From: Candidatus Zixiibacteriota bacterium
GTDB lineage: Bacteria > Zixibacteria > MSB-5A5 > WJJR01
Length of the DNA stretch: 12,028 bases
Assembly: GCA_036170655.1 (NCBI GenBank)
Contig: JAVHPP010000098.1
Span: 1-12,028, forward strand
Direction of reading: 5' to 3'
The position numbers and the translations under genes are program-made. The notes below the pieces were generated by a model. It saw only the letters and a program-made list of their open reading frames with translations, ran no database searches and was not told the DNA's origin. Below, piece after piece: positions 1,843-11,352 of the stretch (position 1 is its first letter; each line of letters starts with the position of its first letter).

Positions 1843-2067
1843 TTACCCGGGAATTGCCCCGAGGATTTCGCCATCTTCGGGAAACCGGCCGGCAACTTTC
1901 TTCGAAAAAATCAGCTTGCCGTTGACCGTCACGTCAAAAACGCCGCCCGCTCCCTGGATCAGTTCCGCGTCGATTCCGCGTCGATTCTTGAGTGTGGCCG
2001 CCAAACTGGAGGCCTGGGGCAGGTAGTTTCATTGACCGCAGTAGGTAATCGAAATTCTGCTCGGCAT
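1843..2067 (-). CDS. Rdx-family (SelW/SelT/SelH-like) selenoprotein, 74 aa, CxxU motif; TGA at 2029-2031 read as selenocysteine
   Basis: Manual translation: MPSRISITYCGQ-U-NYLPQASSLAATLKNRRGIDAELIQGAGGVFDVTVNGKLIFSKKVAGRFPEDGEILGAIPG then TAA (1843-1845). GAGGAGG SD (2076-2082) lies 8 nt before ATG 2067. Rdx hallmarks I-x-Y-C-x-x-U, GGxFxV, IFSK and GRFP continue in frame across the TGA. Confidence 0.93.
1996..2014 (-). promoter_or_regulatory. Candidate bacterial SECIS element
   Basis: Minus-strand GGCCUCCA-GUU-UGGCGGCC: 7 pairs with one U/C mismatch and an apical loop starting GU, 22 nt after the UGA. This fits the general bacterial SECIS model. Confidence 0.7.
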
Positions 2068-5867: not shown

Positions 5868-6656
5868 CTACTTTCGCAAACCAAACCAGAGGAGAAACAG
5901 CGGCTTGAGATTCTTCAGCCAATCGACCGGGCGGACCTTGGTGTACGATTCGGTTTTCTCGAAATCGTAGACTTTCGAGACAGGGACCTCGGCGACACGA
6001 AACTTGTGGGCGTTGACTTTGAACAAGAGATAGAATTCGATCTCGTAGGAAAAGCCCAACCATGGCTGGTTCCAGTCGATGCGCGGATCGGTCAAGAGCG
6101 AGATGCGGTAGGCACGAAAGCCGTTGGTCGCGTCGGTGAGACGTTTGCGCAGCGCCAGCGAGAAAGTCCACGTGTACATCTTCATCGCAATCCAGCGATG
6201 CACCGGCAGACCTCGGCTGAGGCCGCCCTTGGTGAAGCGCGACCCTTGGACATAGTCGGCCCGATCCTCCAGGATCGGCGCAACGAGCGGCGGGATATTG
6301 CGCGGATCGTCCTTGCCGTTTCCCGCCATCAACGTGAAGATATCGTACCCGTTCTTGATGGCGAAGTTGTAGGCGTTGCGGATGGCGGTGCCGGGGCCGA
6401 GATTCTTCCCGTGGGAGATGATCTCGACTTTGGGATGATCGACCGCACGGATCGCCTCGACCGAGCCGTCGGTGGAGCCATCGTCAACGATGAGAATGGT
6501 GTCGACGACGGCATCGACGGTGGCATCCTTGAATCGTTCGATCAGCGGACCGATCTTGCGCGCCTCGTTGTAGCAGAGGATGCAACTGACGACCCGTGGC
6601 TTCGCGGGTCGACGCGGAGTCTCTGGTGGCGATGCAAATAGGTCAGACTGCGTCAT
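5868..6656 (-). CDS. Glycosyltransferase family 2, DPM1-like (polyprenyl-phosphate glycosyltransferase), 262 aa
   Basis: CYNEA, IVDDGSTDGS, NLGPGTAIR, MAGNGKDDP at the usual MDADxQH position, VQGSRF, and TDATNGFRAY. Confidence 0.9.
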   Translation of the reverse strand: MTQSDLFASPPETPRRPAKPRVVSCILCYNEARKIGPLIERFKDATVDAVVDTILIVDDGSTDGSVEAIRAVDHPKVEIISHGKNLGPGTAIRNAYNFAIKNGYDIFTLMAGNGKDDPRNIPPLVAPILEDRADYVQGSRFTKGGLSRGLPVHRWIAMKMYTWTFSLALRKRLTDATNGFRAYRISLLTDPRIDWNQPWLGFSYEIEFYLLFKVNAHKFRVAEVPVSKVYDFEKTESYTKVRPVDWLKNLKPLFLLWFGLRK

Positions 6657-6671
6657 GGGAAATCGAAAACG

Positions 6672-6734
6672 GACCGCTCACGTTGAACTCCTTGCGGTAT
6701 ACCGTTCACGGTGAACTGCACACGGTGAACCGTA
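6672..6734. repeat. Degenerate 7-nt periodic repeat array (consensus nACnGTn)
   Basis: In register from 6672: GACCGCT CACGTTG AACTCCT TGCGGTA TACCGTT CACGGTG AACTGCA CACGGTG AACCGTA. CACG(G/T)TGAAC recurs at 6679, 6707 and 6721, at spacings that are multiples of 7. Confidence 0.65.
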
Positions 6735-10987: not shown

Positions 10988-11079
10988 CGGGAAACAGGCG
11001 TCCGAAGACCGGAATTCGGAATCATTGTCGAAGTTGACATTCGTCGCATTACGGGATGATCTCAAGCACGGGAGGGGAC

Positions 11080-11352
11080 ATGCTGATCTGGTGCGGGATA
11101 CTTTTCACTCTTGGCATCCTTGCCTTCATGGATAGTCTCTTCAATTATGGGGACATCTTCCGGCAGGTTAACTCGGTGCTGTTCATGCTGGTATCGCTGG
11201 GACTCCTGGTCAGAACGACCACGAAGATTCGTACCCATGCGATCGAAAAGAATCTTGAACGCATCAACGCCCTGGAAGAGCAAATCGTTGCTCTACAACA
11301 GGGTGGCCGGAAAGACCGGGAACCATCCCAGCGTGTCAGCGTGTCGGCCTGA
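11080..11352 (+). CDS. Small hypothetical membrane protein, 90 aa (two hydrophobic segments plus coiled-coil-like tail)
   Basis: GGAGGGG SD just before ATG 11080, with TTGACA at 11034-11039 upstream. Hydrophobic MLIWCGILFTLGILAFM and SVLFMLVSLGLLV, then heptad-like IEKNLERINALEEQIVALQ. It fills the gap between two minus-strand genes without overlap. Confidence 0.75.
   Translation: MLIWCGILFTLGILAFMDSLFNYGDIFRQVNSVLFMLVSLGLLVRTTTKIRTHAIEKNLERINALEEQIVALQQGGRKDREPSQRVSVSA

Follow-up and report, generated by a model that had tools for sequence, protein, structure and literature searches.

The window analysed in this study, a stretch of 12,028 nucleotides from a Candidatus Zixiibacteriota bacterium (genome of 2.6 Mb in 184 contigs, 59% GC, 100% complete by markers), carries genes in the order M16 peptidase, short-chain dehydrogenase (SDR), Rdx/SelW-like protein, squalene/phytoene synthase and outer-membrane barrel. 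The Rdx/SelW-like gene (2067–1843, minus strand; identified from the sequence, family profiles and a structure model) would encode 74 residues if its single in-frame TGA is read as selenocysteine (Sec). It is flanked upstream by the SDR gene (3093–2248, minus strand), whose best match is YdfG-like and below the cut-off, and downstream by the gene of the squalene/phytoene synthase family (1798–803, minus strand; PF00494, E 1.5e-31).

The initial annotation had described this gene, without stating the strand, as a strong Shine-Dalgarno (SD) sequence and an ATG followed by 12 codons ending in Y-C-G-Q, a TGA and 61 open codons. This layout holds, but on the minus strand: the SD sequence AGGAGG (2081–2076) lies 8 nt upstream of the ATG (2067–2065), Cys10 (TGC, 2040–2038) is the first residue of the CxxU motif, the TGA that stands for the putative Sec is codon 13 (2031–2029), and the 61 codons after it, which contain GGVFDVTVNGKLIFSKK and GRFP, run to a TAA stop at 1845–1843. 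A plus-strand reading of 1843..2067 gives an unrelated frame and was rejected. Most relatives show a similar purine-rich stretch ahead of the ATG or at the same place as AGGAGG. The sole entry of the ORF track at this site is a TTG-started ORF of 53 aa (2004–1843, minus strand), which lacks the redox motif and whose TTG lies inside the SECIS-like hairpin described below.

A consensus scan of the ends of the Rdx gene revealed no sigma-70-like promoter and no terminator, and the stretch after its stop folds no better than shuffled sequences. RNA sequencing runs containing the window were not listed in the run search. Between the SDR and Rdx genes there is a 9-bp tandem repeat of 5.3 copies (2158–2206), at which 37 bases are missing from the strain of run X5, so the repeat is strain-variable.

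The combination of an SD sequence, an ATG, 5–40 codons, a TGA and at least 50 open codons occurs at 73 places genome-wide, four of which have a Cys three residues before the TGA. Since this layout alone is common, the case for the Rdx gene rests on homology and conservation, and it is the family match across the TGA, together with the conservation of this codon, that places the gene above chance. An ab initio selenoprotein scan gave 161 of 26,501 candidates, with neither the Rdx gene nor selD among them, and is therefore invalid as a description of the selenoproteome.

The 74-aa read-through protein, with the residue at the TGA given to HMMER and the other programs as Cys, matched the Pfam Rdx profile suggested for checking (PF10262, 66.3 bits against a cut-off of 22.6, E 2.8e-18) over model positions 1–71 of 74, and the alignment spans the TGA. 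It also exceeded the cut-offs of TIGR02174 (57.5 bits vs 34.2) and, narrowly, of NF041051 (89.6 bits vs 88); on the latter model the 53-aa fragment stays below the cut-off with 50.7. No second Rdx gene was found in the window's genome. The redox motif follows the first strand, as in other Rdx proteins, and C10-G-Q-TGA13 aligns to the CxxC of 2ojl, 2fa8 and 2ljk; comparison with solved Rdx homologues gave E values of 5e-9 to 3e-3 for sequences and 3e-16 to 2e-7 for profiles.

An AlphaFold2 model of the 74-aa protein (pLDDT 76.4, pTM 0.58) was built from a 77-row alignment, for which 76 of 93 eligible loci were taken in. The predicted model consists of a strand (residues 5–10), a helix (16–30), three further strands and a C-terminal helix, and places the motif in the loop that connects strand 1 to helix 1; as modelled, the protein matches the minimal thioredoxin-like fold (strand-helix-three strands-helix). 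The best Foldseek matches of the model were all members of the SelW family (E 1.4e-7, TM 0.83), and its TM-scores to SelW-family structures, including 2fa8, 2obk, 2p0g and 2npb, were 0.78–0.87 at 29–37% identity. Because the predicted strand 1 begins at residue 5, leaving no space for a signal peptide, the protein is probably cytoplasmic.

These results bear on the possibility that the true product is the 53-aa protein translated from the TTG at 2004, a fragment without the motif. It is this ORF that gene callers list, and 14 of the 15 database homologues examined (17 found) have the same form, starting after the CxxU motif. However, the SD sequence, the ATG, Y9, C10, Y15 and A19, all upstream of the TTG, are conserved, the fragment would lose the first strand and half of the first helix of the predicted model, and its start codon, TTG or CTG in the relatives, falls within the hairpin, which makes a 53-aa product exceedingly unlikely. 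The truncated homologues bear out the initial statement that standard gene callers miss the gene, and the 53-aa fragment should be re-annotated as a 74-aa predicted selenoprotein.

Orthologues were identified by protein and family searches in 20 of the 40 sampled relatives (54–73% identity), and codon 13 is TGA in every one of them. Two sequences were left out of this set: a weak second match in genome G001 (L043; E 8.9e-4, no tblastn match) and a second, Cys-form copy in genome G012 (L042). Among the 80 loci listed from other phyla (of at least 146 confirmed, the remaining 66 of which lie outside this count), 75 have the TGA in register, three have a TGA with one extra Ser and two have TGC. 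Neither TAA nor TAG was ever present at the Sec codon in the relatives' orthologues or in the 80 listed loci, and the terminal stop of these Rdx genes varies freely between TGA, TAA and TAG. Cys10 is invariant (77/77 aligned sequences). In the alignment to solved homologues the TGA falls on the second Cys of CxxC; Cys or TGA occupies this column in the homologues, as the initial annotation had anticipated.

Three actinobacterial loci (L110, L122 and L123) have the form CPT-TGA-SG, in which the TGA is followed by one additional codon, and the hairpin loop has moved along accordingly, to 25 nt from the UGA. The Cys-form copy L042 (G012:C74:21210-21410) is a second Rdx gene of proteobacterial type (CTQC-RWL), which G012 has in addition to its TGA gene.

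Were the TGA a nonsense mutation in a pseudogene, or an error of the assembly, the absence of selB from the assembly would find an explanation, and TGA is indeed the most frequent stop of this genome, ending 479 of 823 long frames. The same codon is nevertheless kept in 20/20 relatives and in 75 of the 80 listed loci of other phyla, and purifying selection acts on the frame downstream of it (codons +12 to +56: pN 0.22, pS 0.71; uncorrected values for the window against 13 family orthologues). Moreover, contigs of four DNA runs span codon 13, with no alternative letter listed there. Three of these runs belong to one study and gave contigs with 0 differences across the codon, although they may derive from the source sample and are then not independent; the single run of a second study represents a diverged strain with 16 differences over 1300–2157, of which 14 are listed, none in the codon. 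The codon conservation, the purifying selection and the run contigs thus exclude a pseudogene or an assembly error, whose residual probability we consider minute.

The genome could also read TGA as Trp or Gly throughout (table 4 or 25), in which case the protein would contain no Sec. In P0007, a full-length homologue from the database, the Sec position is occupied by Trp, which represents either a TGA mistranslated with table 4 or a real substitution. Against such a code, TGA is the commonest stop not only of the long frames but also of the coding-scored ones (594 of 1058), and release factor RF2 is present (520 bits vs a cut-off of 370), which together point to site-specific recoding and not to an altered code. 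In addition, tRNA-Trp(CCA) is the only tRNA-Trp among the 33 tRNAs reported by ARAGORN, the sole tRNA with a UCA anticodon that was found is tRNA-Sec, and homologues hold Cys in this column. We consider the probability of a genome-wide Trp or Gly reading to be negligible, the lowest of all the alternatives.

A candidate signal for such site-specific recoding, a bacterial SECIS-like hairpin, lies within the coding sequence at 2014–1996 (minus strand); it is indicated by the fold, an RNAalifold consensus, pair counts, codon constraint and a test against a published model. Its apical loop, (A)GUU(U), is at 2007–2003, and the loop G follows a spacer of 22 nt from the UGA. The bacterial SECIS model, as summarized in a 2026 review (PMC13188914), has a loop of 3–9 nt with a G in the first two loop positions, is placed 16–37 nt after the UGA and has a folding energy of at most −7.5 kcal/mol. 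The hairpin of the window agrees with our coded version of this model (loop GUU after 22 nt, −9.5 kcal/mol). The coded model passes only 57 of 96 TGA genes, and the selD hairpin of the same genome fails it; it also passes control sites, namely 60 of 600 Cys codons, 20 of 271 terminal TGAs and 1 of 3 Cys-form homologues. As about 10% of control sites pass, it is the comparative evidence that bears the weight.

RNAalifold, applied to 96 ungapped sequences, predicted the same five inner pairs. In the 89 distinct rows, 84.6% of the cells are paired, compared with 73.8% after shuffling and at most 45.4% in slid controls, and covariation is 0.338 vs 0.151 in shuffles (reached in 0 of 500). The pair 21-33, which joins two wobble positions, is retained in 89/89 distinct rows with 35 double changes, and the pair 24-30 is C-G in 85 rows and U-A in four. 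These pair counts disregard relatedness, and the structure under test was derived by folding the window sequence itself; two of the five pairing measures failed to exceed the shuffled values (78 and 36 of 500). The codons are constrained as well: Ser at codon +8 is AGT in 63/63 cases, whereas further along these genes AGT accounts for 20 of 356 Ser codons. Within the hairpin codons pS is down to 0.14.

The stability of the hairpin alone was not higher than that of shuffled sequences in windows set beforehand (z −0.30 to +0.22, and −0.92), and a z of −3.0 was obtained for the hairpin region in a window chosen afterwards. Rfam at gathering thresholds gave 0 matches over the window. In our reading, the hairpin downstream of the UGA fits the bacterial SECIS model, and the comparative evidence for it is strong; the 96 aligned genes form a covarying SECIS set that could seed a model.

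The proposal that the TGA encodes Sec had carried with it the expectation that the organism encodes the Sec machinery. Searches of the assembly revealed selC, selD and the 5′ part of selA, and selB was absent. The tRNA-Sec gene (G000:C90:635-728; 71.9 bits vs 47, UCA anticodon), which was detected with Rfam RF01852 and was not among the 33 tRNAs of ARAGORN, lies directly upstream of selA on contig C90. The selA gene matches model positions 5–134 of 455, remains open to the contig end, and is 61% identical to the full selA of G003, a genome of the same genus. The selD gene (L010; G000:C40:21480-22400, minus strand; 331 bits vs 125) has one in-frame TGA, in the motif SGG-TGA-AGK.

This selD is thus likely a selenoprotein gene itself. 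Its UGA region pairs with upstream sequence in a strong hairpin (−25.5 kcal/mol, z −3.0), in competition with a short hairpin of 5 bp that lies 17 nt past the UGA, and on refolding of the region the predicted structure differed from the short hairpin seen by eye.

A search of the assembly with TIGR00475, with PF09107 and by tblastn with the SelB of G003 did not detect selB; the matches to TIGR00475 were rejected, as they belong to other GTPases, the two examined being pieces of EF-Tu. In G003, however, the gene order is selC-selA-selB, and contigs of runs X2 and X4 aligned to this stretch of G003 carry selA-like DNA that continues into selB-like DNA, with a depth resembling that of the window. 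At two diagnostic bases the X4 contig agrees with C90 and not with G003. Since selB follows selA in relatives and in these contigs, it probably resides in the assembly gap behind selA.

Of 41 sampled genomes, 36 have selB, 35 selA and 36 tRNA-Sec above the cut-offs, so that the machinery is present in about 36/41 and this uncultured class uses Sec almost throughout. One exception is the relative G012, which by markers is 100% complete: its TGA gene is retained, but selA, selB and selC were not found in its assembly. The adjacent bshC is missing from G012 as well, and the TGA-containing selD is kept; as bshC, selC, selA and selB are neighbours elsewhere, the likely cause is a single assembly gap.

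The composition of this machinery is relevant to the option that the UGA is recoded to Cys in a SECIS-dependent manner, or is read through at a low level by a near-cognate tRNA, either of which would yield a CxxC protein. Cys-inserting UGA systems exist in a few anaerobes. Cys forms of the family do occur (2 of the 80 listed loci, and solved structures) and selA is incomplete in the assembly, but a canonical tRNA-Sec is encoded immediately ahead of selA, selD carries no interruption other than its own TGA, relatives have full selA and selB, and a second UCA tRNA was not found. We therefore regard a Cys product as very improbable, although less remote than the other alternatives considered so far.

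The HMM match, the conserved codon, the alignment to Cys, and the presence of selC, selD and part of selA support the initial proposal that the TGA specifies Sec, as a prediction. With high confidence, based on sequence comparison, we conclude that the locus carries a 74-residue gene of the Rdx/SelW family whose conserved TGA very likely encodes Sec, and that its product is a predicted CxxU thiol/selenol oxidoreductase.

Following the established bacterial pathway, SelD would make selenophosphate and SelA would convert Ser-tRNA(Sec) into Sec-tRNA(Sec). SelB would bind the hairpin loop, 22 nt beyond the UGA, and bring Sec-tRNA(Sec) to codon 13, according to the pathway outlined in the review (PMC13188914). 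When selenium is scarce, RF2 would terminate translation at the UGA, with release of a 12-residue peptide. In the SelW family Sec attacks first and Cys resolves. The selenolate of Sec13 would presumably attack an oxidised thiol or a disulfide on a partner, Cys10 would resolve the intermediate to give an internal selenenylsulfide, and a cellular thiol would re-reduce the C10-U13 bond. Since the genome encodes bshC, bshA and bshB1, directly upstream of selC, bacillithiol is the likeliest candidate for this reductant; we offer this as a guess, somewhat short of an even chance.

The initial annotation stated that the family itself is known, and published SelW-like selenoproteins agree with this. 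The gene is an ordinary member of the bacterial SelW-like family (PF10262; TIGR02174, CXXU_selWTH; NF041051, SelTWH_Campy), described since 2005, with which it shares the CxxU motif, a single small domain and a SECIS within the gene; protein and signal are alike, and only the host lineage and the neighbours differ. No selenoprotein family was more abundant in the Sargasso Sea data than the SelW-like one, with 48 genes (PMC1088965); it had 10 Sec members among the bacteria sequenced by 2006, where cultured anaerobes are tabulated (PMC1794560), and is listed in the 2026 review as CxxU/PF10262 (PMC13188914). The SelW-like genes treated in the review cluster with peroxiredoxin genes, in contrast to the Rdx gene of the window, and the review gives no activity or substrate for the bacterial family (PMC13188914).

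Mis-annotation of such genes is already well documented: epsilonproteobacterial selW genes are reported as missed by annotation and mostly equipped with SECIS elements (PMC4607533). A close parallel is SelW of Campylobacter jejuni (encoded on CJnc60, 80–81 aa), compared here through the NF041051 model, which is likewise an unannotated small gene requiring UGA decoding. For C. jejuni SelW, the published account includes Ribo-seq and proteomics that show translation past the UGA (PMC11955535). The Cys-form Rdx structures (Atu0228 2fa8, 2obk, 2oka, 2ojl, 2p0g and SAV_2001 3dex) differ in that Cys replaces Sec and the C-terminus is longer. Human MIEN1 (2ljk) and mouse SelW (2npb) have a homologous fold, but their roles in animal signalling do not transfer; the CxxC of MIEN1 is reported to form a disulfide with a potential of −225 mV (PMC3527542).

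In the matches seen of a literature search on Zixibacteria with selenocysteine or selenoprotein, the phylum appeared in a genome table only, and large surveys or their supplements may cover it. The additions made here are modest, namely the host lineage, the order-wide adjacency to a synthase gene, and the bacillithiol genes beside selC; nothing here would surprise a specialist.

The synthase gene is next to the Rdx gene in 14/14 loci of the family and in 2/3 loci of the sister family (16/17 in the order), and in the third sister-family genome it lies 3.6 kb downstream. The SDR gene is upstream of the Rdx gene in 11 of the 14 family loci. In four Rdx-bearing genomes of the class outside the order the synthase is unlinked to the Rdx gene, and in 10 sampled genomes the synthase is present and Rdx was not found. 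A synthase gene was near the Rdx gene in none of the 80 loci listed from other phyla. The five synthase homologues with an organism name (51–59% identity) are all labelled Zixibacteria, and on the basis of this one neighbouring gene the host would likely fall within that phylum. The synthase scored far below the cut-offs of the HpnD, HpnC and CrtB profiles, a search of the window's genome did not find a squalene-hopene cyclase, and two long PF01593 matches are present in it.

The adjacency raises the speculation that in this order the selenoprotein serves the synthase-like enzyme as a dedicated redox partner and is recycled by bacillithiol. If true, a bacterial SelW-like protein would for the first time have a known physiological role, and bacillithiol would be connected with selenocysteine in a way not described before. 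Inherited gene order would explain the adjacency equally well, given the synthase without Rdx in 10 genomes and the unlinked genes outside the order; we read the adjacency in this way and consider a dedicated partnership unlikely. A literature search linking the gene to phytoene synthase gave nothing among the matches listed.

On contig C90, bshC-bshA-bshB1 immediately precede selC-selA, all on one strand (L139:635-4732). In 21 of the 33 sampled genomes that have both genes, bshC is within 3.5 kb of selC; in 11 the two are on separate contigs, and in one they are 19 kb apart. This adjacency may be plain conserved gene order. Searching the literature for bacillithiol with selA, selB or selenocysteine returned nothing. 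Two intergenic elements in the related genome G003 (L137:3807-3861 and 6485-6674) match many places of the window's genome and represent dispersed REP-like repeats.

Elsewhere in the window, a gene at 11056–11352 (plus strand), which matches no Pfam or NCBIfam model, would encode a 98-aa predicted membrane protein with a coiled tail; it is the only plus-strand gene candidate scanned in the window.
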